IMG/VR virus record: IMGVR_UViG_3300042564_001198
Source: an uncultured virus (IMG/VR IMGVR_UViG_3300042564_001198)
Taxonomy: Duplodnaviria > Heunggongvirae > Uroviricota > Caudoviricetes
Length of the DNA: 20,000 nucleotides
Reading direction: 5' to 3' (one strand)
The notes under the pieces are model-generated. The model was given only the letters and a program-made list of their open reading frames with translations. It was not told the origin of the DNA and ran no database searches. Shown here in pieces: positions 68 through 16,940 of the stretch. The first letter of the stretch is position 1. The number at the start of each line of letters is the position of its first letter. Made by a program: the position numbers and the translations under genes.

Positions 68-562
68 TTAGACGCCGTAGAAAGTAGAAGTAACAGCGCC
101 CAGTACAGACTTGACAGCGATGTTTTGTTTTTCGAGTTGTGCAATCAGAGAGTTCTGTTTAGCTGCGTTTAAGCCAGCATCAAAACGTAAGCCTGATTTC
201 TTAACAGAAGCAGCACCACGGAACAGCAGAACCACTTTGTCACCAGCAGTAGTAACAGATACGTCACCACGAACATCACCCAGAGCATCGAAGCCAACTA
301 CGACACCAAATTTAGCGCCGTTAGCTACAGCACCATCGTTCGCTGGAACGTTGACTGCATCACCAGTGAAATCACCAGCAACAGGTTGACGGTAAGCTAC
401 CAGAGTGTTGTCCCAAATAACAACTTGACCTACACGGTAGGTTTTGGTAGAAGCTTCATCAACGTTTACGTTATGTTGGTAGTTGAAGTTTTCAACCAAT
501 GGGAAGATGTCCTGCATCAGAACATCTGACAGAACTGGACTAGAAGTTGCAATAACAGCCAT
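68..562 (-). CDS. Head decoration/stabilisation protein
   Basis: 164 aa, Val/Ala/Gly-rich, AAGGA RBS; lies between scaffold and probable capsid gene. Confidence 0.7.
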   Translation of the reverse strand: MAVIATSSPVLSDVLMQDIFPLVENFNYQHNVNVDEASTKTYRVGQVVIWDNTLVAYRQPVAGDFTGDAVNVPANDGAVANGAKFGVVVGFDALGDVRGDVSVTTAGDKVVLLFRGAASVKKSGLRFDAGLNAAKQNSLIAQLEKQNIAVKSVLGAVTSTFYGV

Positions 563-581
563 TATTGTTTATCCTTTATAA

Positions 582-1520
582 TTAGTAAGGTTTGTTTAAT
601 TCTGCTGCGAATGCAGCTTTCTTAACTTGTTCTGGAGACACTTCATCACCAGATGTGGTTTCTTCGAACAGGTCAGATTTTTCTACCAGTTCTTTTTTAG
701 CTTGCAGAGATTTAATCACTACTTCAGCCGCTTCTGGGCTGGTGGCTTTCATTACGAATAATGATTTAGCAACAGTAGTTAATTCTTCAGCAGATACTAA
801 GTCTTTCAGAGTTTCTTGGAATGCTTCAAATTCAGCAGCTTCTTTTTCTTCTTTAGCTTTCTGTACTTGATTACGCAGTTCAACTACTTCCACTTCCAGA
901 GCAGATTTCTCAACTTTGAGTTGAGTAGCTTCTGCTACGGCAGCTTCGTGAGCTTGCTCGACTTGTTCTAATTGCTCGTAGCGAGCTTTTTCTACTTGGA
1001 TTTTCAAGGGGTCTTCCTCGTTTTGTTGTTGTAAAGATTTCTCGATTTGAGACTGGATAGTAGTGATAGCAATAAAGTCTTCATCACTAATTGTTTGGTT
1101 TGGGTTTTCGCTGAGAGACTTCATAATAGTGAACTGAGCTACACGCTCTGTAATCCACTTCTCATGTTCTTTCTCCCAATCGTATTCACCATCAGAAGAT
1201 TCACGTTCAGCTTTGTTTGCTTCAAACTCTGTTTCAAAACCTAACAGCTTTGTAAGGGTTTCCGCGTCAGAACTCCACATATCAAAGAACTTACGTAAGA
1301 ATTCTTCCATTGACATTGTTACAGTAATCTGTTCTAATGCTTTCTGTACTTTCACTACGTCAGTTGGTTGGATACCAACATTGGTCCCTTTTGTACAAAT
1401 TAGTTTGTACCCATTCGCGGCATTTCCTTGGTCTTTAGACACAAGGGCTACATGAGCACCATGTGTATCGAAGTCAAAGTTGAAAAGCTTACGCTTTGCT
1501 TTCTGTTTGCTAATTGTCAT
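582..1520 (-). CDS. Capsid scaffolding protein
   Basis: 312 aa; N-terminal AKRKLFNFDF..GAHVALV..QG.AANG, long acidic coiled-coil C-half; start overlaps protease stop. Confidence 0.7.
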   Translation of the reverse strand: MTISKQKAKRKLFNFDFDTHGAHVALVSKDQGNAANGYKLICTKGTNVGIQPTDVVKVQKALEQITVTMSMEEFLRKFFDMWSSDAETLTKLLGFETEFEANKAERESSDGEYDWEKEHEKWITERVAQFTIMKSLSENPNQTISDEDFIAITTIQSQIEKSLQQQNEEDPLKIQVEKARYEQLEQVEQAHEAAVAEATQLKVEKSALEVEVVELRNQVQKAKEEKEAAEFEAFQETLKDLVSAEELTTVAKSLFVMKATSPEAAEVVIKSLQAKKELVEKSDLFEETTSGDEVSPEQVKKAAFAAELNKPY

Positions 1521-2044
1521 TTAATTTCCTGCCCGTAAGCTTCACAATAAACGCTCAAGCCTGTGAACGTACCATCCTTCACTTTAGGCCAAATTACATC
1601 TTCAGCTAATTCATCTGGTTCAGGGAAGTACCATTCTTGCAACCAAGTGTTCTTGCGAATAGTCACTTGCTCACCTTCTGGATTCTCGATAATAAATTCA
1701 ACTGGAGAAGTATAAGACTGCTCGATAATGGCTAAGTCAGAATCAAGCATTACGCTGTGCATCAGATTAGCTTTCATGCAGTGAACGTTGAATGAGCGAC
1801 AAGCTTCGATAACGTCTTGGTCAAAGTAAACATCACCATGTAAGTCTTCTGTTTCTGCCTCAGACTCTTGTGGAGCTAATACAACGAACAATGCTCGACG
1901 TTCTTCAACGTCCACAGACTTACGTACCTGAACACCTTCTGGTGTAGTGACATCGCTCTCAATAACTTGCTTATGGTTTTCACTATCACCGATAGCCATG
2001 TCCAACAAGTCAGTAAACATTTTGATTAGTTTTTCTTTGTTCAT
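1517..2044 (-). CDS. Prohead protease (XkdF-like serine peptidase)
   Basis: 175 aa with DLHGD, ANLMH and VKDGTFTGLSV motifs; directly follows portal. Confidence 0.75.
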   Translation of the reverse strand: MNKEKLIKMFTDLLDMAIGDSENHKQVIESDVTTPEGVQVRKSVDVEERRALFVVLAPQESEAETEDLHGDVYFDQDVIEACRSFNVHCMKANLMHSVMLDSDLAIIEQSYTSPVEFIIENPEGEQVTIRKNTWLQEWYFPEPDELAEDVIWPKVKDGTFTGLSVYCEAYGQEIK

Positions 2045-2793
2045 GCAGAATTTGCCATATTTCTTGTAGAGTTAGGATTCTTCAACTGACTTGTACCTGT
2101 ACCACTAGAACCACCACTCTCACCAACACGGGCTGTGTCAGGGGTGAGCTTAGCTAACAGTTCTTCTTCAGTGAGCTTCTCGATCTCTGTTGTATCGAAC
2201 CCAGTCATCTTGTGTGCTTGAATAATGATTGACTTATCTTTAACCATCATACCAACACCAGCCATCAACTGAACCACTTTAGCATTGTTCTCTGGGTCAG
2301 CTTCATCCAGCTCACCAAACGTCATCACTGGCATATCATCTTCTTCAAGTTTCAGTTCATTAATGTCTGCAAGAGACTTAACAAACTCACGCTCAAATAC
2401 TGTTTTAATATACATCAGCATACGTTCCATGTAGAAAGCATGGACACTGCGAGAACTATCTGATAGACTGTGTGAACCTGTATCACCTTGACCAACCAGA
2501 AGGAAGGAAGCACCTAATACGTTAAGAATATCTTTCTTACGAGCTTCGATTAGTTCAGAGGTTTTATAGGCTTTACTGCCACCATCGACACCCTTCAGTT
2601 CAACATCGTAAACGTATTTACCGTTACCTGTTTCACCATGTGTATCTGATCCTAAGAGGATATATGTTTGATCGCCAGCATGAATAGCAGCAGCATTCTT
2701 TTGTAATGCTCTGAGTGTTTTTGCTTCTAAGCTCTGATCATCTTCAGCAGCTTTATTGATGTGGTCATTCGGGACACGTAATACAAGGACACC
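2041..2793 (-). CDS. Portal protein, exon 2 (250 aa; spliced protein 505 aa)
   Basis: Joins in frame to exon 1 after intron removal (VSKDLG|GVLVLRVP); portal-like C-half (ILNVLGASFLLVGQGDTGSHSLS). Confidence 0.85.
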   Translation of the reverse strand, partial: GVLVLRVPNDHINKAAEDDQSLEAKTLRALQKNAAAIHAGDQTYILLGSDTHGETGNGKYVYDVELKGVDGGSKAYKTSELIEARKKDILNVLGASFLLVGQGDTGSHSLSDSSRSVHAFYMERMLMYIKTVFEREFVKSLADINELKLEEDDMPVMTFGELDEADPENNAKVVQLMAGVGMMVKDKSIIIQAHKMTGFDTTEIEKLTEEELLAKLTPDTARVGESGGSSGTGTSQLKNPNSTRNMANSA

Positions 2794-3049
2794 CATTTGT
2801 TCAAAGTGAGTCGTTAATTCACTCCAGCGACATTATTCGCTTCTCTATGTTTCCATAAAGTTCAGACTATATCTTCATCCTATAAGGATGCTTCCCATTT
2901 CGAGCTACTTAGCCCTACGGCTTACGCCTAGTCGTTACACGTTCTCATTACTGAGCTTCGCTCGGTATTGTCTCCAACATTACTTGGTAAGAGTTTCACC
3001 GAATTAGAAAAGTTATTCAATGTGCATTACTACACAAGGGGGCAGTTCT
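2794..3049 (-). ncRNA. Group I self-splicing intron (256 nt, IA-like, no ORF) in portal gene
   Basis: 5' exon ends GGGU pairing with IGS GCCC; core UCGGUGAAAC, CAAUACCGAGC, GUAACGACUA, AAGAUAUAGUC; P3 CUUUUC/GGGAAG; P7.1 and P7.2 hairpins; P9 GAAA loop; terminal G at 2794; phase-0 join. Confidence 0.92.
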
Positions 3050-3814
3050 ACCCAAGTCCTTGCTCACCCCAACAACCTCATAGCTTGTAATCATTTCAAG
3101 CTCTTTCCAAGATTTAAAGCAGTCGTATAGATCTGATTTACCTTGAGGGTTGTTACCTGTACTGTTCCAACTAAACAACATAAACTTTTCTCTACGAACA
3201 AATTTATCTGTTAAGTTTTGTACAGTGAAAGGGTTGATATTACTTTGTCCAATAACTGTAGCTGGCATCCATTGATGTAAACCAACTAAGTCTCGCTTCA
3301 ATACAGCATCATCAAACACCCACTCACGAACACTCTTTTGAGCGCGAGGAGCAAGCTTTGCGTATTTGTATTTATATTTACCAGACCACTTAATACTATC
3401 ATTCTTTGCAAAGACTTTCTCAAGCCAAGCGAATCCATATTTACGGAATGTGATAATATTTGTGATGGCATCGTACCAACTGTTACCGACGAAGTTCTTG
3501 ATGTTCCAGTTGAGGAAGGCAGCAAAATCTTTTGACTCTTGACTTCCTGATACACCTGCGATAAACTTTGTAGCAAGTAGGGACTTCGTAAGGAATACTT
3601 CACCAGCGGTTAAGCCTTGGCTAACAGCAGAGGTAGAAGCCATCTTATCGTATGTGGTGAGGCTATGAGGAAACTGCAATTCTTTCTTAGCAGATTCTTC
3701 AATGTAGCCCCCGATGGCTTTTAGATATGGATTGCCGATCTCCCCTAAGCGAAGACGACTGTCTGAGCTAGAGGGATTAGATTCAGCTTTCTCAATTTGA
3801 ATTGTTTCTGACAT
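3050..3814 (-). CDS. Portal protein, exon 1 (255 aa)
   Basis: GAGG RBS; follows terL; portal-like segments (YGFAWLEKV, KLAPRAQ, NPQGKSDL); last 10 aa of listed ORF are intron read-through. Confidence 0.85.
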
Positions 3815-3826
3815 TATCCCCTCAGA

Positions 3827-5293
3827 TTATGAATTAAGGTCATATTGCGCTTTGATTGTGGGATCGTTGAGAGCGGTTAGTTTTGGGACTGTGTAAGTTT
3901 TGACACGGCACAGGAAATTAAAACAATCTGCTGTTGTATCAACCCAATCATCTTTGATTTTTCTGCTGCTGCGCCACTTACCGTCTTCGTTTGGTTGAAA
4001 TTGTTCAAGCTCTCTGTAGAAAGCATTCAGCGTCCTAGTATCAGGAAAACTATCTTCTACTATAAACACCAGACCAGATTGTGCCGCAGATAAGAAAGGT
4101 TCAAAGCGAGAAGATTTACTTCTTGTACCAGATGCGGCAGAAGGGTATATTTTAAATCCTTCGGCAACAAACTTCTTGGCAATCTCTTGAAACACTTGCT
4201 TTCCGTCTGCTCCGGCATCCTGAGCTAATACTACTTTAGTCTCTCTACCATCATGTTTGGCTTGCAGTAGCATTAATTGGTCTCGCTCACCGGCAGCTTT
4301 TCTAAACTTCCCATAAACTTGTTCGTGTTCATCGAAAGTAGTTTTAGCAAAGTCACCATATATGTAGTAAAATCCATTACTGTCTTTAGCCATGTGAATA
4401 CAAGCGGTAAAGTCTGCGTCTGTATTTTTAATCTTAGGACTATACTCTGTGTTAGCTTTATCCCAAGCTACTACTCTTTGACAACCTTCCGGTAAGGATT
4501 TTTTGACCCTTTCCCCATGTTGTCCCCTGAGCCATTTTCTGTCGAAGAATTTTATCTTGTCACTCTCGCTGTGCCAATTTCCGAAAAGCTGGCTGGCTCT
4601 TTCATGCTCAGGTAAATTTTGAAGTTCAGACAGATAGCGCGGGTTGAGTCGGATGAGTATTGGGTTATCAAAAATTGTTAGTTGCACAAAGCAAAACTTT
4701 TTAGGTGGTACATACATTTGCTCATTAGTGGACGGGTTGGTTATATACACCGTCTCCGGCATGTTTTCACTAAACCATTCTTCACTATCGGCAAATATAA
4801 AGTCATTATCTTTTACTACGTACCAACGAATTTGTCCATTCTTAGCCTTATCAACAAAACCCTCATCATCGAGATACCACTTAACTAGGTCATATACCCA
4901 GTTCTCCCTGTGGGGGTTACACGTTCCGATGCAAACAGAGTTCATGTTCGCTTCCGAGCGCAAAGTTGTAAGTAAAAATAAAAGAGCCTCTTTCGGGACT
5001 TGGGTGATTTCATCCACACCCAAATAGCTAAGTTGCAAGCCGCGCATTTTTTCAGCGTCAGAAAGATTTGAAATAGCTTTGTATCGAATCTTACAACCAG
5101 AAGGAAATTGATAATATGGTGGTGGAGATTTGATAGGTCTTGCACCAAGGAGAGGGTAGTATTTGTATGCAGTCTCCCACAAACCACCAGCACCTGTCAA
5201 TTGGTCATACTGAACACGGACAAACATTCCGTTGAATCGTGGATCATCTCGCCACATTAGAGGTATCTGAGTTATTACTTCAGACTTGCCGCC
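3827..5293 (-). CDS. terL: Terminase large subunit, exon 2 (488 aa; spliced protein 535 aa)
   Basis: GGKS end of Walker A, Walker B LGVDE, GTCNP motif, nuclease AWDKA and KDDWVD motifs. Confidence 0.92.
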   Translation of the reverse strand, partial: GGKSEVITQIPLMWRDDPRFNGMFVRVQYDQLTGAGGLWETAYKYYPLLGARPIKSPPPYYQFPSGCKIRYKAISNLSDAEKMRGLQLSYLGVDEITQVPKEALLFLLTTLRSEANMNSVCIGTCNPHRENWVYDLVKWYLDDEGFVDKAKNGQIRWYVVKDNDFIFADSEEWFSENMPETVYITNPSTNEQMYVPPKKFCFVQLTIFDNPILIRLNPRYLSELQNLPEHERASQLFGNWHSESDKIKFFDRKWLRGQHGERVKKSLPEGCQRVVAWDKANTEYSPKIKNTDADFTACIHMAKDSNGFYYIYGDFAKTTFDEHEQVYGKFRKAAGERDQLMLLQAKHDGRETKVVLAQDAGADGKQVFQEIAKKFVAEGFKIYPSAASGTRSKSSRFEPFLSAAQSGLVFIVEDSFPDTRTLNAFYRELEQFQPNEDGKWRSSRKIKDDWVDTTADCFNFLCRVKTYTVPKLTALNDPTIKAQYDLNS

Positions 5294-5503
5294 CAAGTCT
5301 CAGTTATGTGTTCGCTAGGCACTTCCACCGTTTCCGGTGTTGTCGGACTATATCTTATGCAATAAAGCATCCCTACGTTTTCATGTCGCTTGACATTACT
5401 TTAGTCTCTACACCCACGAATCTAATCGTTCGGCTCGGTATTGCCCTCGTCTATACGTTAGGGTTTCACCGACTTAGCAGGGTTACGTGGCAGCGGTCTA
5501 TTT
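5294..5503 (-). ncRNA. Group I self-splicing intron (210 nt, no ORF) in terL Walker A
   Basis: P1 CGUGGU/GCCACG with U.G at splice site; P10 CCGCU/GGCGG; P3 CCCUGC/GUAGGG; UCGGUGAAAC, CAAUACCGAGC, GUAGAGACUA, AAGAUAUAGUCC; P9 CACCG-GAAA-CGGUG; terminal G at 5294. Confidence 0.93.
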
Positions 5504-5644
5504 ACCACGCGAACCACCGATGATCATGAAATCTACTTCGGTAGCTCTTTTGAATACAAGTTCTTGCATTGGAGAACAAGGTCCAATCTCTACAATCTCT
5601 TTTGGAGGAGCCTTGTTCGTTACTTTAGGTCTTTTGTTACTCAT
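5504..5644 (-). CDS. terL: Terminase large subunit, exon 1 (47 aa, not in ORF track)
   Basis: AAGGAG RBS then MSNKRPKVTNKAPPKEIVEIGPCSPMQELVFKRATEVDFMIIGGSRG; splicing restores GGSRGGGKS. Confidence 0.9.
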
Positions 5645-5696
5645 ATTTCTCCTTTTTTATAATGCACTAATTAAATGCACTATAGAAAAGAGCCAG

Positions 5697-6659
5697 CTAT
5701 AAAAGCTGGTCTTCATATTCATACACTATAGATAATATCTTAGATAAATTAGAGAGGTACGTTGTCTCTACATAACCGTGCTTCATATCTACTTTCGAAA
5801 CTACCTTTCTTATAATATCTTTACTTCTGTAGACTTTATTCTCAATGTCCAGTGCTGTATAACCACTAGCAAAATTGAACAAATACATAGGCTCTATATC
5901 AAAGGTAGAGTAGCGTCTGATTTCCTTCAAACGCCTTTCCATATTATTTGTAACACCAAACTTTATAACATCGTCAGTTACTTTAAGTATGTAGAATGTT
6001 CCTGATTTCTGTGGTTGAAAACCACTTCCACCACATAGAGGACAACCTTTACCTTGAACATGATTGTCTGGTGTTATACTAAATTCACCATGTGTAGGGC
6101 AGGTGACAATCACTTTTTGTTTACAGTTCTTGAATTCTGAAACAGTAGAATAGTCGTATAAATCGCCGTGAACTGCTTTGAATTTAAGAATATAACTTTC
6201 ACGACCTTTGTTGTGAAGATGACCTTTTCTTATATTGAAGCAACTTGGACAACCATGCCCAGACATTAAATTATTTGGCTTTGCTCTGAAAGTATGACCT
6301 TCCTTACAAGTCACCTCTATGTGTACAGAAGCTCTCTCGTATTTTGCATTACTAAAATCAAAACCATGTGCAGGGAATTTAGCGTCCAACTTTTTAATAA
6401 ACTCGTGCAGATTACTTGAAGCCACTTTAGATTTATATTCTCTTAGGCAGTCACAGCATCCAATCCCACCTAACATCATTGATTGAGCATCTTGCCAATA
6501 TGTGTTGCCGTGCTTGATACAAGTCACTTCGCACTTCTCGTGCTGAGTCAGGTAAACAAGGTTAGAATAGTCTAACTCTATTTTCTGGTTCTCTTTACAT
6601 TTTTCAATAAATTGTTCTTGTGTAAGACGACGATATTTACCTTTCCGCTTCTCTTTCAA
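5697..6659 (-). CDS. Free-standing homing endonuclease: repeated Zn-binding modules plus C-terminal GIY-YIG (T5orf172-like) domain
   Basis: Three CxxH/EG...GCxxC repeats; C-terminal FYILK..IKFGVTNNMERRLKE..GYVE; TTG start after AGGA. Confidence 0.75.
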   Translation of the reverse strand: MKEKRKGKYRRLTQEQFIEKCKENQKIELDYSNLVYLTQHEKCEVTCIKHGNTYWQDAQSMMLGGIGCCDCLREYKSKVASSNLHEFIKKLDAKFPAHGFDFSNAKYERASVHIEVTCKEGHTFRAKPNNLMSGHGCPSCFNIRKGHLHNKGRESYILKFKAVHGDLYDYSTVSEFKNCKQKVIVTCPTHGEFSITPDNHVQGKGCPLCGGSGFQPQKSGTFYILKVTDDVIKFGVTNNMERRLKEIRRYSTFDIEPMYLFNFASGYTALDIENKVYRSKDIIRKVVSKVDMKHGYVETTYLSNLSKILSIVYEYEDQLL

Positions 6660-6664
6660 TTTAA

Positions 6665-7315
6665 AATCCTATTAATCAAATACTCCCCGCGCATTGGCGC
6701 GGGTCTGTTCACAAACCCAGCACAGAGAATATTTGTTAATAGAATCTCTGTGAACAATTTTTCGTGCCGAAGCACCAAGCCACGCCAATAGCCTGTACAA
6801 CAAAATGAAATAACCAACGTACTTACGCAGAGGTTGGTTACATATTATAAGGCTTCAATGAGCCAAACAACTTAAGTGCTTTTAAGCAATAACAGATTAA
6901 CGGACTGCTCTAAGTGCCCCAACGACACATTCCGTCGATTGTTTCACTTTATTTATACACGTTAACCGTAGCCATCGATAGCATCAATCGTGTTATATCT
7001 ATCCCACAATTAAACTTTTACTCCCCACGAGGGAAACCTTATTACAGGGAAGTAGGCAACCTAAACAGTCCAGCTCTAATTGCTCTATGTGTAGGGTTGG
7101 GTCAGCCTTTTTGTTAACACCGGTATTCATTCCTAGTGGAATCTACAGAATGCTAAATTAGGGAGTCTGCCGCTACCAGACCAACACATTATTCACTCTT
7201 ATAGTTGTCCATGTGTTATGGCGCTTGCACGGATTCCATCTGTATTTAAAGCCCTAGGGAACGTATTCGAGGGCTATCAGCAAACCACATCCCATGTGAG
7301 GATGCTGAATTCTTT
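6665..7315 (-). ncRNA. Candidate large structured non-coding RNA (~650 nt)
   Basis: No credible ORF; many stems incl. GUGC-UUCG-GCAC (6764-6775), 6811-6818/6833-6840 with inner GUAA loop, long-range GGACUGUUU/GAGCAGUCC; most G.U pairs favour the minus strand. Confidence 0.55.
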
Positions 7316-7321
7316 TAAATA

Positions 7322-7438
7322 TTAAGGACCAACAATATCCACATCTAACCAACCATCATTAATTACTGGAGGCCACTCATCAGAGATACCTTCACCATAA
7401 CCAACGTCAAGGTCTAAACCCCAATCTTGTTCTTTCAT
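7322..7438 (-). CDS. 38 aa acidic, Trp-rich peptide (not in ORF track)
   Basis: GAGGA RBS just after upstream stop; MKEQDWGLDLDVGYGEGISDEWPPVINDGWLDVDIVGP. Confidence 0.65.
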   Translation of the reverse strand: MKEQDWGLDLDVGYGEGISDEWPPVINDGWLDVDIVGP

Positions 7439-7447
7439 AATTCCTCC

Positions 7448-7894
7448 TTATGATTTCTTAGCTTTAGCAGCAGCCTTCTTCACAACAGGCTTAGCTTCTT
7501 GAACAGGGGCTTCTACTGTTGTGTCAACCACTACTTCCGTAGCCTGTTCTGCTTCAATTGTAGCTGCTTCTACTACGTCTGTCAAATCTTTTTCGATTAC
7601 AGACATCATAAATACATACTTTCTATCGAAGATAAATGTTACACGAAGTAATGTGCTAACAATACTACGAATATCATCTTCTGTCAAATCTTTTGCATTG
7701 GCTACAACGTAATCTACTACTTCATGTAACTGAGCAAATCGAATAGTATTACCACCAACACTATAATCGGTGCTAACATTGGTAAACATTTTTCCATTAA
7801 TTTCTTTCCAGAAATCAGCATATGTTCCATTCTTCACTGCTTCATAAATTGCTGGCAAGAAGCTACTCACGCCATGATAAGTTAAATTCTTCAT
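7448..7894 (-). CDS. Hypothetical protein with Lys/Ala-rich tail
   Basis: 148 aa, CAGGA RBS. Confidence 0.75.
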   Translation of the reverse strand: MKNLTYHGVSSFLPAIYEAVKNGTYADFWKEINGKMFTNVSTDYSVGGNTIRFAQLHEVVDYVVANAKDLTEDDIRSIVSTLLRVTFIFDRKYVFMMSVIEKDLTDVVEAATIEAEQATEVVVDTTVEAPVQEAKPVVKKAAAKAKKS

Positions 7895-7923
7895 TGTGTT
7901 TCCTGTGTAAATTACATTCTCTT

Positions 7924-8052
7924 AAAAATAAAAGCCCCGTTACGACGAGGAGAGGTGTGCAGAGGAGGATGCACCATCGTAACGGGGAAGGAGGGAACAC
8001 ATCACTGTGTTTTATTTTAATCGCTACCTTATGGTGATAGCTGGAGGAGAGA
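7924..8052 (-). ncRNA. Candidate small RNA / long terminator with CCUCCU-rich loops
   Basis: 11-bp stem 7935-7945/7977-7987 followed by a U-tract on the minus strand; four CUCCU-containing tracts in loops and linkers. Confidence 0.5.
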
Positions 8053-8090
8053 AGTAATGAAAATTGGTTACTTGCGGGAATGTAATTGAA

Positions 8091-8453
8091 TTAGCTTACA
8101 GCGCCAAATTTAACAACTACACCTTCGTATGTTTCTTCTTGTGTATCAGCCATGTCATCGACATCTGATTGCTTAGCTCGTTGAAGCTCCACTTTCTCAT
8201 TGTGGATAAGAAGCTCAAACCATTTACCGCTGAGGTAAACGTGAATCTTGATAGCTGCTCCAACATCACCGCGTTCTTCTAACGTAGCTGCAAGCTCTTG
8301 TAATTTCTTTAAGGATTGGGGACCGGCTAGTGACAACATAGATTCTAATTTAGCCTTAGAATGCTTACCTTTACTGCCAGTAGGTCTCCCATTTCTATTT
8401 CCGCTAACTCCTTTGCGGAACTTGCCTTTGTCATCACGAATTTCGTCTGTCAT
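8091..8453 (-). CDS. Probable terminase small subunit (DUF5681-like N-terminus)
   Basis: RDDKGKFRKGVSGNRNGRPTGSK motif; GAGGA RBS; upstream of terL. Confidence 0.65.
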   Translation of the reverse strand: MTDEIRDDKGKFRKGVSGNRNGRPTGSKGKHSKAKLESMLSLAGPQSLKKLQELAATLEERGDVGAAIKIHVYLSGKWFELLIHNEKVELQRAKQSDVDDMADTQEETYEGVVVKFGAVS

Positions 8454-8476
8454 ATTATATTCCTCTTACATCCACT

Positions 8477-8505
8477 AATGTATCATTGACTTCTTGATTT
8501 GTCAA
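8477..8505 (-). promoter_or_regulatory. Sigma70-like promoter for putative terS
   Basis: TTGACA-17bp-TACATT. Confidence 0.6.
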
Positions 8506-8517
8506 GAGATATTTAAT

Positions 8518-8769
8518 TTAATTATCAAAATATGAATAATAGAAGTCAGAATGACTCTCAGAATGTAACGATGGGCTTGCCCCTTCAGAGCAGTTTTCTA
8601 ATGTAAACGTAGGAGAGTATTGCTTTTCTTTTGATGCGTTGATACAGCTATTACAAAGCCCTACAAGCTCATCTGAATTGGGGTATGTACGTTTCTGTTC
8701 GCCTGTATCTAATAAGCGATTACAAGCCATGCAGCGGCTTATAAACCCTGTGATTGATCTATTTGTCAT
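8518..8769 (-). CDS. Hypothetical Zn-finger protein
   Basis: 83 aa with CMAC...CNSC. Confidence 0.65.
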   Translation of the reverse strand: MTNRSITGFISRCMACNRLLDTGEQKRTYPNSDELVGLCNSCINASKEKQYSPTFTLENCSEGASPSLHSESHSDFYYSYFDN

Positions 8770-8781
8770 ATTGTTATTCTT

Positions 8782-9060
8782 CTAGCATGTGATTGTTAAA
8801 GGGCTTGACCAAGGACGTAAGTAATCTGGTAATGGTTTACCAACATCAATTCGGTCTTGGGTTATTTTAAATTTATCAAGAACAGGAGAATCCGATAGTA
8901 ACCACTCCGATATTGTAGGATTCTTGATTGTTGTAGTTTCTTTCTTAAACACTAAATTCAAATGGTCTTTAATAATTAATACTTGCTTTGCATCCAGCAT
9001 AGATGGATCACCAATTTCTAATAATCCTTGTAACCAATAACAGAAATTCTCTGGGGTCAT
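8782..9060 (-). CDS. Hypothetical phage protein (92 aa)
   Basis: Start revised to ATG 9060 after AAAGGA RBS: MTPENFCYWLQGLLEI. Confidence 0.75.
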   Translation of the reverse strand: MTPENFCYWLQGLLEIGDPSMLDAKQVLIIKDHLNLVFKKETTTIKNPTISEWLLSDSPVLDKFKITQDRIDVGKPLPDYLRPWSSPLTITC

Positions 9061-9084
9061 AATGTTTCCTTTTGTTTGAATAGG

Positions 9085-9416
9085 CAATGAGCTGGCAACC
9101 TCAGCGGTTACGCTAAGCCGGAAAACCTTCGGGCTTACTTTGCAACGTTACTTGCGCATTCAGCTCATTCGACTATAGACTTGTGCTTACCTCTCACTCT
9201 GGCGTTCCACAGCAGCAAACTGTGTTGATCTGTTGAGCAAGTCTATATGCGAATAAACTCACAGTAAGAACCACTTACTTACGGTTGTGACTCCGGCAAC
9301 TCCTTTAGTGCTTCTCAGCTAACGCAATATCCGTCGAAAGTTGCTCTACTCGGATACTACGCCAATGTTACCAACGCTGTGGTTAGCAGCGGCATCATAA
9401 CATTAGGGACTCATTG
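9085..9416 (-). ncRNA. Candidate structured ncRNA (~330 nt) with possible pseudoknots
   Basis: Stems 9321-9333/9351-9363 (13 bp, 4 G.U on minus), 9174-9183/9238-9247, 9086-9094/9161-9169; GCU-GAGA-AGC loop; no credible ORF. Confidence 0.6.
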
Positions 9417-9431
9417 TTAATTAATCGAATT

Positions 9432-9662
9432 TCACATTCCAAATTTTACTTTAAAATAACTACCACACTGATTACGATAATGCAAGTTAAGCACTTCACG
9501 TAATTGTTCATAATTGAGAGAACAAACACGAGCAATCATTTCGTTATGTTCAATCCCCCAATTGTGTTCATTGTAGCGTTGATATGACGGATGCGTCAAC
9601 AACATTCTAATTTTATTAGCAAGTTTACGAATCTGTGTCTTGCTTAGCTTTTTCAAATTCAT
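9432..9662 (-). CDS. Hypothetical protein
   Basis: 76 aa, AAGGA RBS, promoter upstream. Confidence 0.7.
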   Translation of the reverse strand: MNLKKLSKTQIRKLANKIRMLLTHPSYQRYNEHNWGIEHNEMIARVCSLNYEQLREVLNLHYRNQCGSYFKVKFGM

Positions 9663-9689
9663 GTGTATTCCTTATTTGTGATATAAAAA

Positions 9690-9717
9690 AGAATAACACA
9701 TGATTCTTATTTGTCAA
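9690..9717 (-). promoter_or_regulatory. Sigma70-like promoter
   Basis: TTGACA-16bp-TATTCT with extended TG. Confidence 0.55.
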
Positions 9718-9731
9718 TAGCTAATTTGAAA

Positions 9732-10634
9732 TTATTTTACATGAGGTAAAATCTTACCATCATTTAACGCTGTTTGAAACTTATTCCAGAAACCTTGCAC
9801 ACGAGAGTAATACAGCTTACAACACAACCCGTAATGCTCCCAAGCAAATTCTCTAAACCAACCAGAAGTAATGCTCGTACACACTTTCATCAAGCTATAA
9901 CGCCACACTTCATGTTCTTTCACTTCTGGATCATCAATATGAATTAAGCTGCGTTCAATAGCCAAAACCATAGCTTCTTCCAGAACTGCATTGAGCTTTG
10001 TATCCAATGATTGTTGTTCAAACAACTTCTTACAGGTTTTAACTTCTCCAACCAGAAAGCTCTTATAAGCTGGCTCATTCTCAATTGCCACAGCTTCATG
10101 GATACTATCATGGTCGTAAATATATTCAACACCTTTTGTGTCGAAGAATTCTTCCTTGCTTTTATCCAAGCTCGGATGATTGTAGTAATACGTTTCTTTC
10201 TCACGCTCTATAAACCACTCAGAAAGCTCTGGTGGGATTTTAGCTCCTACCCTACGTAAGTCTTGAATGTCTTTCCAAGTCTTCTCAAAATGCGGGCTGT
10301 TGCGTAAAAACCTATGTGACATCTTCAATGTGTAAGCTAAGTCAATCTTACTTACTTGATGTTGTGTTAATATCTTCAACAAGCTCTCAGCAACACTACC
10401 TTTCACAGCTAACTCAACTTCAAGTATATCACCTGACGGATGTTTTAATACAAACGACTTTCTTACAGGATGACCACCGTCAATCACCTGTGCTGTGGAC
10501 CATTGATGTTCTTTTAATATTTCTGCAAATCTTTCTTCTGTACAAATAATATCGTAATCTGACTTAAAGGAAGGTTGACGTACACCTGATGCACCATCCA
10601 ATAAACGACTTCCTACAGTGATTTCTTGTAACAT
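9732..10634 (-). CDS. Nucleotidyltransferase-fold phage protein
   Basis: N-terminal VGSR...SDYDII (GS/DxD pattern); helical C-half with YDHDSIHE and CTSITSGWFREFAWE; AAGGAG RBS. Confidence 0.6.
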   Translation of the reverse strand: MLQEITVGSRLLDGASGVRQPSFKSDYDIICTEERFAEILKEHQWSTAQVIDGGHPVRKSFVLKHPSGDILEVELAVKGSVAESLLKILTQHQVSKIDLAYTLKMSHRFLRNSPHFEKTWKDIQDLRRVGAKIPPELSEWFIEREKETYYYNHPSLDKSKEEFFDTKGVEYIYDHDSIHEAVAIENEPAYKSFLVGEVKTCKKLFEQQSLDTKLNAVLEEAMVLAIERSLIHIDDPEVKEHEVWRYSLMKVCTSITSGWFREFAWEHYGLCCKLYYSRVQGFWNKFQTALNDGKILPHVK

Positions 10635-10656
10635 CAACCTCTCCTTCTATTTCAGA

Positions 10657-10914
10657 TTAACAATGTTGGCTGGAAGCCATCCAAGCGTAAGGTGTTTCAC
10701 TTTCCTCATCACTAGAAGCATCCCAGTCTTCTGTGAATGTACCACCCATACCGTATGTTAAACTGAAACGTAAATCGAAACGATGTGTTTCTGCTAAAAC
10801 TTCCGCTTCAGCAATGGCTGCTTTAGCTAAGTCCATCAAAGCATCAGCTTTCAGCTTTGGAGTTACATCTTGGAAATCCAGAATCTGTTGGATTGTTTGT
10901 GTTTTCTTACTCAT
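10657..10914 (-). CDS. Small acidic hypothetical protein
   Basis: 85 aa, AGGAG RBS; YGMGG and C-terminal WMASSQHC. Confidence 0.75.
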   Translation of the reverse strand: MSKKTQTIQQILDFQDVTPKLKADALMDLAKAAIAEAEVLAETHRFDLRFSLTYGMGGTFTEDWDASSDEESETPYAWMASSQHC

Positions 10915-10957
10915 TTACTTTCTCCTTTAAGTTAACAGCGTTATTGCTGTGGTGTAT

Positions 10958-10985
10958 ATTCTACTGATTTAATTCTTATTGTCAA
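10958..10985 (-). promoter_or_regulatory. Sigma70-like promoter
   Basis: TTGACA-16bp-TAGAAT. Confidence 0.6.
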
Positions 10986-10988
10986 GAG

Positions 10989-11261
10989 TTATTCTGAATA
11001 AACTTCTAACATCTTCTTGTTGTATTCCTTCACCCAGCCATATGTCAGGAAGAAATCTACGAAGTAGATAATGGCACTAATCACCACCAAAGGTGGAATG
11101 AACAAACCTAATACAAACACTAATGCTCGAAATACAAAGTGTGTTTCTTCTCCTACATACCAGCAGTGTAAGCCTACCACGCCAAATAGAAAACCTAATA
11201 TGTATGCTACACCAGTAGACTTCTTATTTAATTCATATAAAGCTAATTGTTTTGTGTTCAT
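10989..11261 (-). CDS. TM2-domain membrane protein
   Basis: KKSTGVAYILGFLFGVVGLHCWYVG matches the TM2 pattern; hydrophobic helices. Confidence 0.75.
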   Translation of the reverse strand: MNTKQLALYELNKKSTGVAYILGFLFGVVGLHCWYVGEETHFVFRALVFVLGLFIPPLVVISAIIYFVDFFLTYGWVKEYNKKMLEVYSE

Positions 11262-11270
11262 TATTCTCTC

Positions 11271-11561
11271 CTATAACTTCAAGTACTTTTTCATTAAAGT
11301 TTTTAACTTACCTAAGTCATCCGATACTAGATCGGACTCAGTGATGCAGTCAAAGTAATCATCTATGTGTGTTTCTACCATAACCAAGAAAGCTCTGGTG
11401 TTGTTTCTATGAATTATTTCAGTAACAGGAATAACCTGATACGGACCAACATAATGCCCAGAAATTAGTTTACATACATTGATTGGGATATTAACTTCAA
11501 AAGAGGTAATATCCCAATTGTCATGGCCAAACGGCATAGCTAACGTCTTACTCTTATACAT
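11271..11561 (-). CDS. Hypothetical protein
   Basis: 96 aa, AGGAGG RBS. Confidence 0.7.
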   Translation of the reverse strand: MYKSKTLAMPFGHDNWDITSFEVNIPINVCKLISGHYVGPYQVIPVTEIIHRNNTRAFLVMVETHIDDYFDCITESDLVSDDLGKLKTLMKKYLKL

Positions 11562-11660
11562 TTAAACCTCCTACAATCAATTCTAAGCCATTTTAGACAT
11601 CATTGTGTCTAAATGTATTCCATAACATCTAAAATGGCTATCCGTGTGTCCTATGAGCTA

Positions 11661-11689
11661 ATACTAAGCTATGTTTGTGTTGTTGTCAA
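11661..11689 (-). promoter_or_regulatory. Sigma70-like promoter
   Basis: TTGACA-17bp-TAGTAT. Confidence 0.6.
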
Positions 11690-11700
11690 GAATTATTTTG

Positions 11701-12270
11701 TTAATTAAACTGATTCATGGATTTTTCGTAACTTTCTATTGAAATTTTACCATGAGTCTGAAAATACTCTTTAACGTAAGAATCCACATCAGCATACCCT
11801 TGTCCTTCGATAAAATCAATGAGCTGCTTACCTGACCCATCAAAAACAGCCACTATTTGCCGATCTATTTGTTTCAGACAAAGCCCTGTCGTAGCCAATT
11901 CAATCGGTATCCCAAGCTCATCCATAGCATTACTGTAATACCCCCAACTGGCATCCACTTCAAAACCATAATCCCAGTCAACATCATCATGCCTGAGAAA
12001 ATTCAGATCAGCGCATTTCCATTTGATAAACTCTGGTAGCTCTTTTATGGAAAAGTTCGGTTTGTCTTTGTTCAGTAAAGGGTTCTTTTTAGAAATACCA
12101 AAAGCTTCAACTTCCAGCATGGTTTCTTTGTCTGGTAACTCACAGTAAACTACCTCATCAAATTCCTTGTCCCGTTTGTGAGTTTTCAACCTATCTATAA
12201 TTTTAGTGGTAGAACCAATGTACACTAACTCGCCTTTATTTTTAAGACAATAAACATAATATTTAGTCAT
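11701..12270 (-). CDS. GIY-YIG endonuclease family protein
   Basis: YYVYCL..LVYIGST...RLKTH...E..I....P.LN. Confidence 0.8.
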   Translation of the reverse strand: MTKYYVYCLKNKGELVYIGSTTKIIDRLKTHKRDKEFDEVVYCELPDKETMLEVEAFGISKKNPLLNKDKPNFSIKELPEFIKWKCADLNFLRHDDVDWDYGFEVDASWGYYSNAMDELGIPIELATTGLCLKQIDRQIVAVFDGSGKQLIDFIEGQGYADVDSYVKEYFQTHGKISIESYEKSMNQFN

Positions 12271-12284
12271 TCTATTTTCCTATC

Positions 12285-12755
12285 TCAAATTAAACCAATA
12301 CTTCTTTCATACTCATAATCAGGTTCGCTGAATTCAGGTATGTAACCACTCATGTCCACAGGAACATCCAACAAATGACTTGGTACTGATTCCTTACCGG
12401 TATTAACCACATCAAATATAGAATCAAACTTTGTGTAGTTCAGCCTGTTGCCACCACCGTTGAAGTAGTCAATGTATCCATGTGTTTTCCATTTCTGCAC
12501 GAAACGAGTTACAGTCTTTTTATCTACACCAACAGCATCAGCTATCTGCTGATAAGTTTCATAGTAACCGTTCTTTGTGATGAAATATACATACCTAGAT
12601 CTCATGTACACAAACAAAACCTTATCAAGAATTGTGATCTCTACTTCTTCTGGATCTCCATCAATGAATACACAACGAGACAGAGTGTGCCTCTGTTTCA
12701 GTATGTTGTGGTGAAGTTGTACGAAGCTTGGTTCTTTATCTTCTTTCTTTTTCAT
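12285..12755 (-). CDS. HTH DNA-binding protein, putative replication initiator
   Basis: YETYQQIADAVGVDKKTVTRFVQKWKTHGYI winged-HTH pattern; next to iteron array. Confidence 0.6.
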   Translation of the reverse strand: MKKKEDKEPSFVQLHHNILKQRHTLSRCVFIDGDPEEVEITILDKVLFVYMRSRYVYFITKNGYYETYQQIADAVGVDKKTVTRFVQKWKTHGYIDYFNGGGNRLNYTKFDSIFDVVNTGKESVPSHLLDVPVDMSGYIPEFSEPDYEYERSIGLI

Positions 12756-12782
12756 TTCTATTCCTAAAGTTCTAATGTATCT

Positions 12783-12902
12783 CTACATCTTTTCTATTTC
12801 TCTAAGCTTAACCAAACAGTTAACAATAAAAGCCTGACGGCTAAGCTCACCCCTACGACTATCTATCCACACAAGAACGTGTTTAGGTAGTAATAATTCC
12901 AT
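12783..12902 (-). CDS. 39 aa ribbon-helix-helix (CopG/Arc-like) protein (not in ORF track)
   Basis: AGGAGA RBS; MELLLPKHVLVWIDSRRGELSRQAFIVNCLVKLREIEKM fits strand-P-helix-G-x-SR-helix. Confidence 0.6.
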   Translation of the reverse strand: MELLLPKHVLVWIDSRRGELSRQAFIVNCLVKLREIEKM

Positions 12903-12914
12903 AATAATCTCCTA

Positions 12915-12990
12915 CTCTCTACTTGATTAAATTAATTATTCTATCTTTCTTTTCTTTGTTTCTTTTTATCTTACTTCTATCTTACTAATG
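12915..12990. promoter_or_regulatory. AT-rich, strand-asymmetric tract (putative DNA unwinding element)
   Basis: Pyrimidine-rich plus strand (ctatctttcttttctttgtttctttttatcttacttctatc) adjoining the iterons. Confidence 0.5.
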
Positions 12991-12995
12991 GAAGG

Positions 12996-13096
12996 TGCAA
13001 AATGTCTTATCTCTGTGGACAAATTGTCCTACCTGTGGTGACAGAATGTCTTTTCTATGAAGACAAAAAGTCTATTCCAGAAAGGACAAAAAGTCC
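12996..13096. repeat. Five iterons, consensus GACAAAATGTCY, period 22-23 bp (putative replication origin)
   Basis: TGCAAAATGTCT 12996, GACAAATTGTCC 13018, GACAGAATGTCT 13040, GACAAAAAGTCT 13062, GACAAAAAGTCC 13085. Confidence 0.8.
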
Positions 13097-13099
13097 TCA

Positions 13100-13258
13100 T
13101 TACCTCATCTTTTCCTGAATAAACTCATCAACAAGAAGTGCTATATGCTCACTATCCGCCCACTCCGACCAGTCGATAACACTCCAAATCAAAGCAACCT
13201 GCTCAACAGGAAGCTCGTAATGCTCAGCAATCTGTTTAATCATTTCTTCATCTTTCAT
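13100..13258 (-). CDS. 52 aa acidic hypothetical protein (not in ORF track)
   Basis: AAGGAG RBS; MKDEEMIKQIAEHYELPVEQVALIWSVIDWSEWADSEHIALLVDEFIQEKMR. Confidence 0.7.
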   Translation of the reverse strand: MKDEEMIKQIAEHYELPVEQVALIWSVIDWSEWADSEHIALLVDEFIQEKMR

Positions 13259-13394
13259 TGTCAATCTCCTTTGTTAACCTTTACTCTAATATCTTACCAC
13301 ACCTGTATATCATGTCCACTCAGATGCGATGAACAACCGATTCCACAAGACCAAACGCAAATCTCTAAAATTGCGTTTACCTCAACAGCTATAC

Positions 13395-13423
13395 ACATTA
13401 CACCGAATAAATAATGTTGTCAA
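13395..13423 (-). promoter_or_regulatory. Leftward sigma70-like promoter of divergent pair
   Basis: TTGACA-17bp-TAATGT. Confidence 0.6.
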
Positions 13424-13458
13424 CCTATTTCTCATTTGACAAATTCCACAAATACCTA

Positions 13459-13487
13459 TTGACAACCAATCAACAACACTGTAATCT
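13459..13487 (+). promoter_or_regulatory. Rightward sigma70-like promoter of divergent pair
   Basis: TTGACA-17bp-TAATCT; marks the strand switch. Confidence 0.6.
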
Positions 13488-13520
13488 GTGCAGACATTAA
13501 CACATATGAGGAGAAAATTA

Positions 13521-14111
13521 ATGTTTAAATCAATTATTTCGTGGTGGAAAAATCAATTTCTTGCTGAAGGTGAGAGTCAAATTAAGTATCAGGAAGATGT
13601 AAGTGTTAAAGCTACACTGCCAGACTTACCTGAGAATGTACTAACTAAATCTCAATATTTGGGTAGTAGTCTCAAAGGTGAGGAATTTTATTTACGCATT
13701 AAACTAGGTGTGGATACTTTCAGTCTATATGGTAACAATAATGAATTACTTGATAGACAACTTAATGTCCCAGTAGCTACACTGCTGAAAGTAATCAAGC
13801 AAGCTTTTGACGATGGCGGTATTTACTTTCCAACAAGAGATCTGGAAACTGGAACAGTTACGGTAAAGTACAAAGAGAAACGGTTGTTAGATTTGGTGTT
13901 TAGTACAGAATCCTCGCTCCTGCGTTTCAGTAATGACTTAGTGTACGTGAATTGCCCTATTCGGTTCCCAGAAAGTTTGAATTTCTTAACGCAAGACGAA
14001 CATTTCTGGATTAGTCAGTATTTCCACTATCGTCTGAGAACCTTATGTGAAGAAAATGAAGAAAAACGTCGAGCAGCAACAGAGTTAGAACTACAGGAGT
14101 TATTAAAATGA
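13521..14111 (+). CDS. Hypothetical protein (196 aa)
   Basis: Start revised to ATG 13521 after GAGGAG. Confidence 0.75.
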   Translation: MFKSIISWWKNQFLAEGESQIKYQEDVSVKATLPDLPENVLTKSQYLGSSLKGEEFYLRIKLGVDTFSLYGNNNELLDRQLNVPVATLLKVIKQAFDDGGIYFPTRDLETGTVTVKYKEKRLLDLVFSTESSLLRFSNDLVYVNCPIRFPESLNFLTQDEHFWISQYFHYRLRTLCEENEEKRRAATELELQELLK

Positions 14112-14749
14112 TCAAAATTGATGAAGACATCTTAGCGACAATTGAGAGTATTGCTGAGAATACGATTGGTTACGAAGTGTATCTTGGGGGCGGTCTTTGC
14201 CGCGATGTGTATCTTGGTGTAAAACCAAAGGACATTGATTTATTCTTTGTCCCAGTTGAGAATGCACCTCAATACTTGTTATATGACACACATCGTAACT
14301 TACAGTATAGTTATCGAATGGAAACAAACGAGACACAATCTCTGTATCAACGAGGTGTTGAACAACTGATTGGTTTTAAAACTCCATCGTTAGCGGTGCC
14401 TGAGCTTCAGTTTATCGTGTATGGGACAACGTTGACAGCAGAAGAACTCACTGAAGACATGGATATTGGTATTTGTCAAATCATGTATCACATTTTCTCT
14501 GGTAAATTCTACGTATCTGAGAATTTTAAGAAAGATGTTGCAGCTAAAGAGATCCGCTGTTATCATAAGTACGACAAATACCGCATGATTGAACGATTTG
14601 ACAGAATGCAACGTAAGTTTCCAGACTTTAAGTGTGTTGGTAAACCTACGGTTGGGTTTAATGACTTCATCGAATCACCAATCGAAGTTATCAGCAGTGT
14701 TTATCGTAAGATTAAACCGCGTAAAGTTAGTTGTAGTAGTGGATACTGA
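14108..14749 (+). CDS. Class II nucleotidyltransferase (CCA-adding/poly(A) polymerase head domain-like)
   Basis: YLGGGLCRDVYLGVKPKDIDLFF motif A and DMDIGICQI (RDFTIN-like). Confidence 0.75.
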   Translation: MIKIDEDILATIESIAENTIGYEVYLGGGLCRDVYLGVKPKDIDLFFVPVENAPQYLLYDTHRNLQYSYRMETNETQSLYQRGVEQLIGFKTPSLAVPELQFIVYGTTLTAEELTEDMDIGICQIMYHIFSGKFYVSENFKKDVAAKEIRCYHKYDKYRMIERFDRMQRKFPDFKCVGKPTVGFNDFIESPIEVISSVYRKIKPRKVSCSSGY

Positions 14750-15196: not shown

Positions 15197-15207
15197 GGGG
15201 GATGAGA

Positions 15208-16362: not shown

Positions 16363-16394
16363 TGAATAATGATTAATTATTGAGGAGAGAAATT

Positions 16395-16929: not shown

Positions 16930-16940
16930 GGAGTAGTTGA

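Follow-up and report, generated by a model that had tools for sequence, protein, structure and literature searches.

The DNA analyzed here is a 20,000-nt stretch (the window) of an uncultured virus of the Caudoviricetes (IMG/VR record IMGVR_UViG_3300042564_001198). Its packaging module comprises a free-standing homing-endonuclease-like gene, the gene for the large terminase subunit (terL) and the portal gene, all on the minus strand together with two group I introns, one in terL and one in portal, that lack an open reading frame (ORF) of their own. Near-identical strains exist in which one or the other intron is precisely missing, and among relatives, both close and distant, the three elements (nuclease gene, terL intron and portal intron) vary independently in their presence. 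The module is probably a hot spot for selfish elements that are independent of each other, with the terL intron as an optional hitchhiker. The source phage, an uncultured myophage of lake water, is a distant relative of Pseudoalteromonas phage H101 and vibriophage ICP1.

Layout of the packaging module

Feature positions are listed in Table 1. A 52-nt spacer with an AAGGAG ribosome-binding site separates the stop codon of the nuclease gene from the terL ATG, and the distance from this stop to the terL 5' splice site is 193 nt. The ORF of terL exon 1 reaches a stop one codon past its IIGGSRG end. Exon 2 of terL was matched by Pfam Terminase_6N (2e-15) and Terminase_6C (1e-07) and by PHROG 979 (E 3.8e-131). 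Both portal exons were assigned to PHROG 113 (portal), with E values of 2.8e-19 for exon 1 and 1.6e-21 for exon 2, and exon 2 was also matched by Pfam Portal_Mu (E 1.5e-07). With both reading frames split in this way, full-length TerL and portal protein are predicted to need splicing of the group I introns.

Table 1. Positions of the genes, exons and introns of the packaging module in the window
Feature	Position	Strand	Basis
Free-standing homing-endonuclease-like gene, 320 aa, TTG start	6659..5697	minus	ORF list, Pfam, PHROG
Nuclease domain (about residues 215-320), GIY-YIG-like fold	5700..6017	minus	profile and structure comparison
terL exon 1, 47 codons, ATG 5644, ends ..IIGGSRG within Walker-A loop	5644..5504	minus	ORF list, homologues
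terL group I intron, 210 nt, ORF-less, ends G5294	5503..5294	minus	P1 pairing, RF00028, homologues
terL exon 2, 488 codons + stop, starts GGKSEV	5293..3827	minus	Pfam, PHROG
portal exon 1, 255 codons, ATG 3814, ends ..VGVSKDLG	3814..3050	minus	PHROG, tblastn, P0271
portal group I intron, 256 nt, ORF-less, ends G2794	3049..2794	minus	RF00028, P1 pairing
portal exon 2, 250 codons + stop, starts GVLVLRVP	2793..2041	minus	Pfam, PHROG

The terL intron

Splice sites were derived from the P1 pairing, the terminal G and homologues. In P1, CGUGGU (5509..5504) is paired with the guide GCCACG (5491..5486), leaving a U-G pair at the splice site, and a P10 pairing is formed between GGCGG of exon 2 and CCGCU adjoining the guide. 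The RF00028 match at 5544..5324 reached 47.7 bits (E 3.9e-10), slightly short of the gathering score of 50. No ORF of at least 40 amino acids (aa) was present in the intron except read-through of the exon frame. Three uninterrupted 535-aa TerL proteins (P0001, P0243 and P0249; predicted proteins and loci of relatives are given by P and L numbers) read ..IIGGSRGGGKSEV.. across the junction, and their first 47 residues are 100% identical to the exon-1 translation.

L020 and L027 have introns at this site that are 87-89% identical to that of the window. The terL intron thereby outconserves its exons, for which the corresponding values are about 70-81%. In an alignment of nine introns (window, L020, two copies from L027, L026, L034, ICP1, PH357 and 1.161.O), generated with MAFFT and not structure-fitted, 29 of the 41 predicted pairs had at least one double change that kept the pair. 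Exon and guide have covaried in L034, where the exon hexamer is CGCGGT and the guide GCCGCG. RF00028 scores of other introns at this site were 55.8 bits (L026), 52.8 bits (L027) and 66.5 bits (L034). The L020 intron, 88% identical to that of the window, was not listed by the RF00028 scan at E ≤ 0.01, and the introns of ICP1, PH357 and 1.161.O were not listed at E ≤ 0.001 in a 64-kb RF00028 scan.

A blastn search with the terL intron returned 118 phage records, of which 109 were Vibrio phages, ICP1 isolates among them. The intron core of Vibrio phage 424E50-1 was 96.3% identical to the window intron over 81 nt.

Two insertion sites are found within the P-loop (a slash marks the junction): GGSRG/GGKS in the window and its clade, and GGA/AG[GS]GK[ST] in ICP1, PH357, 424E50-1 and 1.161.O. 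Relative to the ICP1-type site (L010:3475-3736), that of the window is displaced by 6 nt in the 3' direction, with the guide changed to match. A metagenome contig whose TerL is 62% identical to that of the window, L027, carries a second terL group I intron (L027:2676-2904) at ..ALRG/LQLSY.., preceded by the 5' hexamer CGTGGT and containing the guide GCCACG, the same pair as at the P-loop site. This second copy is nearest to the L026 P-loop intron (80%) and only 66% identical to the other L027 intron. By its sequence it looks like a guide-directed insertion at a new site.

These observations bear on the possibility that ORF-less introns spread mainly as RNA, by reverse splicing into guide-matched sites, with the nearby nuclease irrelevant. 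The L027 copy at a new codon, with the hexamer and guide of the P-loop site and 80% identity to the L026 intron, would fit such a route, as would the 6-nt displacement between window-type and ICP1-type sites occupied by introns that are 76-80% identical. The relevant part of PMC3984707, however, records no direct evidence for this route in any bacterial system, and circumstantial evidence of the present kind has so far been cited there mainly for introns of ribosomal DNA. The survey yielded one ectopic case only, and break repair after cleavage of relaxed specificity could give the same picture. As the main mode of spread, reverse splicing is considered highly improbable, and the terL intron is preferably read as an optional hitchhiker among independent elements.

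The portal intron

The RF00028 match in portal (3063..2843) scored 80.6 bits, above the gathering score of 50, and the full model (1-253) was aligned. The intron interrupts a conserved motif of portal. P1 is formed by GGGU (3053..3050) and GCCC (3043..3040), again with a U-G pair at the splice site, and is extended by CAAGG/CCUUG; the predicted structure includes P2 and extra P7.1/7.2 and P9.1/9.2 hairpins, with a fold z-score of -3.14. As in terL, no ORF of at least 40 aa was present except read-through of the exon frame.

Two predicted portal proteins, P0271 (505 aa) and P0272 (506 aa), are uninterrupted across the junction and read ..SKDLGG[V/I]L... P0271 is 100% identical to the window across the 255 residues of exon 1. 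Its differences from the window fall mainly in about 25 residues 3' of the junction (GILILRTP..EDPDSLEAQ against GVLVLRVP..EDDQSLEAK), which is the pattern that co-conversion at a homing site would leave. The portal protein of phage 1.101.O was also colinear across the junction by tblastn.

Contigs from RNA libraries (runs X20 and X22), derived from a relative about 95% identical, join position 3050 exactly to exon 2. The first 15 nt of exon 2 in these contigs are a synonymous variant in which 6 of 15 letters differ. The joined contigs may represent either spliced RNA or an intron-less relative. The portal intron was uncovered in these contigs and terL and the nuclease gene were almost uncovered; such gaps are not evidence of absence. 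Fragments from DNA run X13 were 100% identical to the window, with both introns present. Among the lake-water runs X11-X18 are some that cover the phage only partly.

Introns at or near this site were also seen in other phages. L030 contains two ORF-less portal introns (7737-8068 and 8282-8650; 93.2 and 69.3 bits), one of them exactly at the site used in the window. In L029 (8698-9537) an 846-nt intron insertion lies 3 nt from that site and contains a 178-aa ORF that is HNH/AP2-like by motif reading, a label with no Pfam run behind it. The portal gene of H101, annotated as separate hypothetical proteins, is interrupted some 70 codons downstream of the window site by a group I intron (L008:6531-6829, 77.1 bits). 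In some strains that are at least 90% identical (P0258, P0260 and P0264) the portal exon-1 call is 255 aa long and ends exactly at the splice site. Calls of this length are expected from an intron that starts with a stop codon, as in L029 and L030, and a different intron variant may occupy the portal site in these strains. A literature search on portal introns gave no directly relevant paper among the listings and abstracts returned, and it is not claimed that such introns are unreported.

Relationship between the two introns

Intron identities were calculated in one matrix with a single scoring scheme, as matches over the shorter length. The terL and portal introns of the window were 63% identical, a value also reached in this matrix by pairs from distinct intron families. 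The terL intron was 89% identical to the intron of L027, 88% to L020, 80% to ICP1, 77% to 1.161.O and 76% to PH357. Values for the portal intron were 70% against the introns in portal of L030 and H101 and 68% against those in terL of L026 and L034. An origin of the pair by recent duplication was ruled out by the 63% identity and by the closer relatives that each intron has elsewhere. When the whole region was compared by megablast with 50,697 phage records, only two short intron-core matches were obtained.

A preliminary description of the locus, made from the letters and an ORF list, had called the introns twins on the basis of five core motifs. All five motifs are present in both introns and are shared by the terL introns of L020, L026 and L027; GACUA and AAGAUAUAGUC are part of the Rfam consensus itself. 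The name of twins is not sustained at 63% identity. Other elements of that description were confirmed: the junction alleles and the ORF list agree on compact introns in both genes that encode no nuclease, the internal guide sequences do differ, the placing of a zinc-finger/GIY-YIG gene close to terL is sound, and both packaging genes have frames split by group I introns, which would make them dependent on splicing.

The nuclease gene

The nuclease was matched by Pfam DUF4379, a treble-clef zinc finger (29.4 bits), and DUF723 (21.0 bits) above the cut-off, and by CapR homology (18.2 bits) and MUG113 (17.0 bits, cut-off 22.3) below it. It was assigned to PHROG 681 'endonuclease' (E 9.5e-64). In an alignment of 31 sequences (the nuclease and 30 homologues) three Cys/His modules were invariant, with zinc-ligand columns that include C47, H50, C68 and C71; C118, C137 and C140; and C187, H190, C206 and C209. 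Invariant residues of the nuclease domain were Y223, K233, G235, R243, E273, G295 and E298. A profile of the 31 sequences matched the GIY-YIG-type protein of PDB entry 1zg2 (UPF0213) at positions 217-307 (E 0.0069).

An AlphaFold model of the protein had a mean predicted local distance difference test score (pLDDT) of 85.8 and a predicted template modelling score (pTM) of 0.40. Foldseek gave no match to the whole model at E ≤ 0.001. Residues 215-320 were compared with known structures using VIA-align, and the top three matches were all GIY-YIG nucleases, at moderate Z: At-HIGLE was best (Z 6.9, root-mean-square deviation 3.0, 87 residues aligned), followed by Slx1 (Z 6.8 and 6.2). I-TevI (3.8), UvrC (3.4) and T4 EndoII (3.1) ranked lower. 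Orthologues of the nuclease carry precomputed PF13455 or PF10544 annotations, and BLASTP aligned it with ICP1 ORF130 at 27% identity over 212 aa (E 2.5e-20). From these features the family is assigned to the CapR-type zinc-finger/T5orf172 group of putative phage homing-type nucleases.

The position upstream of terL is an insertion slot of variable content. In the clade of the window (TerL 60-66% identical) it holds a T5orf172-like gene in the window and a NUMOD4-HNH gene in L020 and L027, and no recognizable nuclease ORF was found in the slot of L026. Conserved non-coding blocks upstream of the slot are common to all four. Compared with L020, L026 and L027, nuclease presence is patchy at a fixed slot beside an essential gene, and the slot is a hot spot for nuclease genes.

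The non-coding blocks, which mark the upstream edge of the slot, lie upstream of the nuclease gene at 7315..7109 and 6994..6887 (minus strand) and are 89-90% identical to L020:3940-4147 and L027:825-933, where the neighboring genes are only about 70% identical. They gave no frame preference in tblastx and no Rfam match, and could be a regulatory or packaging signal.

The location directly upstream of terL also raises the question of whether the nuclease has been recruited for another job, either in aid of the terminase, as proposed for the HK97 HNH protein, or for damage to competitor phages, with the introns as passive passengers. A possibility of this kind is discussed for HK97-like phages in PMC10448857, and full-length orthologues at 52-91% identity retain every zinc ligand as well as the conserved nuclease-domain residues. 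Against it, the slot holds three unrelated nuclease families or none in relatives with similar terL, which is unexpected for a constant component of the packaging machinery. Members of the family also occur in 891 phage records, in varied contexts and frequently more than once per genome. Recruitment is considered quite improbable, and occupation of the slot by independent selfish elements is the preferred reading.

Distribution of nuclease genes and introns in relatives

Relatives were drawn from a phage collection, IMG/VR and metagenome contigs. A single-protein scan of the metagenome contigs found no relative, and an alignment-based scan found 12 loci. The viral (IMG/VR) set gave two contigs identical to the window and six more distant loci, with no intron-less close relative among them. 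Loci were scored by tblastn with full-length TerL, by Rfam and by Pfam or BLAST of the upstream ORF. This gave 21 scorable loci, among which L021 and L022 are near-duplicates; intron-bearing 1.161.O and L034 were left out as their upstream sequence is lacking.

Nine loci carried a P-loop intron. The upstream gene was T5orf172-like in three (window, ICP1 and PH357), NUMOD4-HNH in three (L020, L027 and L028) and a classical GIY-YIG gene in one (424E50-1); L026 had no recognizable nuclease ORF upstream and L033 had an unclassified one. The remaining 12 loci had uninterrupted terL, preceded by a T5orf172-like gene in H101, L030, L031 and L035, by a NUMOD4-HNH gene in 184E37.1 and 355E48.1, by a DUF5681 protein and no nuclease in L029 and L036, and by small unknown ORFs in 1.101.O, L021, L022 and L023. 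T5orf172-like genes were therefore found upstream of 3/9 intron-bearing and 4/12 uninterrupted loci, HNH genes upstream of 3/9 and 2/12, and classical GIY-YIG genes upstream of 1/9 and 0/12. A lack of correlation between nuclease and introns in relatives had been named beforehand as a result that would refute their partnership, and these counts, from a small sample, reveal no association. The two introns were also separable: L020 has the terL intron and an unbroken portal gene, and L029 and L030 have portal introns and unbroken terL.

In H101, T5orf172-like genes flank the terL-portal pair on both sides, with a second CapR/T5orf172-like gene after portal (L008:7429-8640). LAGLIDADG/Hom_end domains were found N-terminal to the terminase domain in the terL ORFs L024:3233-5716 (827 aa), L032:4295-6925 (876 aa) and L025:2962-4560 (532 aa). 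These are inteins in or near the P-loop region that hosts introns elsewhere.

Strain-level polymorphism

The TerL cluster at 90% identity contains split calls of 476 aa and 48 aa from up to 12 contigs, the longest of 186,720 nt, together with the three uninterrupted 535-aa calls, which are 97-99.6% identical. The latter come from contigs of 5733 nt (P0001, 99.6% identical), 3190 nt (P0243) and 31,355 nt (P0249). A 265-aa portal exon-1 ORF that ends inside the intron was found on a 5733-nt contig (P0261) and on a 31,355-nt contig (P0266). A nuclease variant 91% identical to that of the window, P0121, also has a longest contig of 5733 nt; its differences, from a reading of the two sequences, lie mostly in the N-terminal zinc-finger part.

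The equal sizes would place P0001, P0261 and P0121 on one contig and P0249 and P0266 on another, and it is very likely, though not certain, that the equal-sized entries are the same contigs. Strains without the terL intron but with the portal intron probably exist, one of them with the nuclease gene. A strain with nuclease gene and portal intron but no terL intron would imply that the terL intron is needless for self-immunity and unlinked to the portal intron.

Interpretation of the locus

Collaborative homing in the strict sense would require the nuclease to recognize the uninterrupted Walker-A sequence of terL and the intron to protect this site, so that nuclease and intron spread together and the portal intron is co-converted. 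The layout lends itself to this model. A free-standing nuclease gene and an ORF-less intron are 193 nt apart, the same arrangement recurs with a related nuclease in ICP1 and PH357 and with a classical GIY-YIG gene in 424E50-1, and intron-less target alleles are present in the same population. Collaborative homing by a free-standing nuclease beside an ORF-less intron is also a legitimate idea that is already in print: it was proposed for the homologous ICP1 terL locus by Barth, Dunham & Seed (2023, NAR Genom Bioinform, PMC10448857), who gave as an alternative the turnover of a nuclease that leaves an empty intron behind.

The distribution data point the other way. T5orf172-like nucleases precede uninterrupted terL in four loci, the intron at the same site is accompanied by an HNH gene in L020 and L027 or by none in L026, the 91% nuclease variant probably shares a contig with intron-less terL, and the portal intron, at a distance of 2.45 kb, shows no linkage to that of terL. 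Strict collaborative homing is accordingly rated as improbable. The preliminary description had proposed collaborative homing, with immunity conferred by the intron and possible co-conversion of the portal intron. Of this the layout and the idea itself, with its ICP1 precedent, stand, and the strict partnership is not supported, as nuclease and intron are uncorrelated in relatives. Immunity is argued against by the likely strain that has the 91% nuclease variant and no terL intron, and co-conversion of portal by the separation of the two introns in L020, L029, L030 and the 5733- and 31,355-nt contigs.

The preferred reading, in which the elements are independent and the terL intron is an optional hitchhiker, would work as follows. 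During co-infection the nuclease would cut nuclease-less relatives in or near the 5' region of terL, and its gene would be copied in by repair of the break. The terL intron, 193 nt away, could be carried along by co-conversion, which is trans or collaborative homing in a loose sense, and would not be an obligatory immunity device for the nuclease. The portal intron would move or be lost independently; it could be mobilized in trans by the intron-encoded HNH enzymes of relatives, exchanged by ordinary recombination or occasionally lost precisely. It is most likely a nuclease-less member of a family that elsewhere has its own HNH nuclease.

Several points weigh against this reading. The cut near the 5' end of terL is suggested by gene position only. 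The higher exon identity beside the terL intron (76-86% over the first 60 nt) is equally explained by the conserved P-loop, which predicts the same profile, so that such profiles do not separate co-conversion from P-loop conservation; the P-loop DNA of uninterrupted relatives has a synonymous divergence too high to reveal a shared target. The survey loci are few, non-independent and phylogenetically uneven. The link between P0121 and P0001 rests only on the equal longest-contig size of 5733 nt. The uninterrupted proteins could in principle derive from assembled spliced RNA; this is disfavored because the same-size contigs keep the portal intron, which splicing would remove, and one of them is 31 kb long.

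A more dynamic version can be envisaged, in which the lake population is a live arena where ORF-less introns spread both by hitchhiking on nuclease breaks and by guide-directed insertion at new CGUGGU sites. The first part draws on strains that are 97-100% identical in TerL or portal and differ in each intron, and on the three nuclease families that share the slot; the guide-directed route draws on the displacement of the site by 6 nt from that of ICP1 and on the additional L027 copy with a matching guide. Taken as a whole this version is rather unlikely, and if true it would make intron gain and loss in essential phage genes directly measurable from time-series metagenomes.

Comparison with known systems

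The closest known counterpart is ICP1, in which terL splicing was demonstrated by RNA sequencing, reverse-transcription PCR and Sanger sequencing (PMC10448857). There ORF130 lies directly upstream of ORF129 (33 aa, ending ..FYGGA), which is followed by the intron match and by ORF128, the terL gene, annotated with a 'poor ribosome-binding site'. The order of T5orf172 nuclease, terL exon 1, ORF-less intron and terL exon 2 is the same in the window, as are the nuclease architecture of CapR-type zinc fingers with a T5orf172-like domain and the interruption of the Walker-A loop. Both phages also have a tape-measure intron with an HNH gene, found here in G001, a 42-kb record of the same phage. The ICP1 intron, 80% identical to the terL intron of the window in the matrix, was aligned by blastn at 69% over 78% of the query. 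Unlike in ICP1 (GGA/AGGGKS), the terL intron of the window sits at the more 3' site with a different guide, the nuclease is 27% identical and 76 aa shorter, and portal contains an intron at a site where the ICP1 gene is unbroken. The TerL proteins are only about 27% identical. Pseudoalteromonas phage PH357 has an orthologue of ORF130 (42% identity) and an intron, and in Vibrio phage 424E50-1 a classical GIY-YIG gene is followed by a 37-aa terL exon 1 and then the intron.

Collaborative homing is defined by a nuclease whose target is the intron insertion site (PMC3984707), and in cyanophage S-PM2 (psbA intron and F-CphI) and in T3/T7-like phages the nuclease cuts at that site (PMC10448857, PMC3984707). 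At the present locus, cleavage near terL is a prediction, and the comparative evidence is against an obligatory partnership. The looser collaboration favored here resembles trans homing by T4 mobE/I-TevIII, in which a free-standing nuclease promotes inheritance of a neighboring immobile intron (PMC2790892). The T4 case differs in that the mobE nuclease is of the HNH type, the gene is nrdB and the intron keeps a defunct nuclease ORF, whereas the introns of the window have none.

The best database matches of the portal intron were introns of Twort-like Staphylococcus phages, whose structural genes contain multiple introns, at about 73% over 75-91% of the query, and a terL intron of Aeromonas phage phiA009 (71% over 93%). 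The Twort-like introns are in different host genes and a different lineage, and the likeness is at the level of intron subgroup only.

The core arrangement is thus already known from ICP1 and is not a new kind of system. New are the freshwater lineage, the presence of a portal intron as well, a terL site displaced by 6 nt and the natural strains with several combinations of presence and absence. The combination of an ICP1-type nuclease with an intron-split terminase, described for a cholera phage, is extended to a distantly related, uncultured phage of fresh water. The locus is useful for the annotation of packaging genes that are split and therefore called as fragments by gene callers, and as a test of whether collaborative homing reflects a true partnership or a crowding of selfish elements at conserved sites.

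Other features of the phage

Downstream of portal, Pfam and PHROGs identified a prohead-protease-like gene (Peptidase_S78_2), a PHROG 4103 gene and a decoration-like gene. G001 matches the window letter for letter across 378..16955. Identity breaks at 16955, beyond which only one 311-nt stretch matches, at 94.5%; this mosaic boundary sits just before a PhoH-like gene (16941..17747). The G001 tape-measure gene, outside the window, is split by a group I intron (L016:8150-9103) with an HNH endonuclease ORF (L016:8291-8995), so that the phage carries at least three introns. A 189-aa ORF at 12270..11701 (minus strand) of the window gave weak matches to PHROG homing endonuclease and endonuclease families (E about 1e-6) and may be another nuclease gene or a nuclease remnant.

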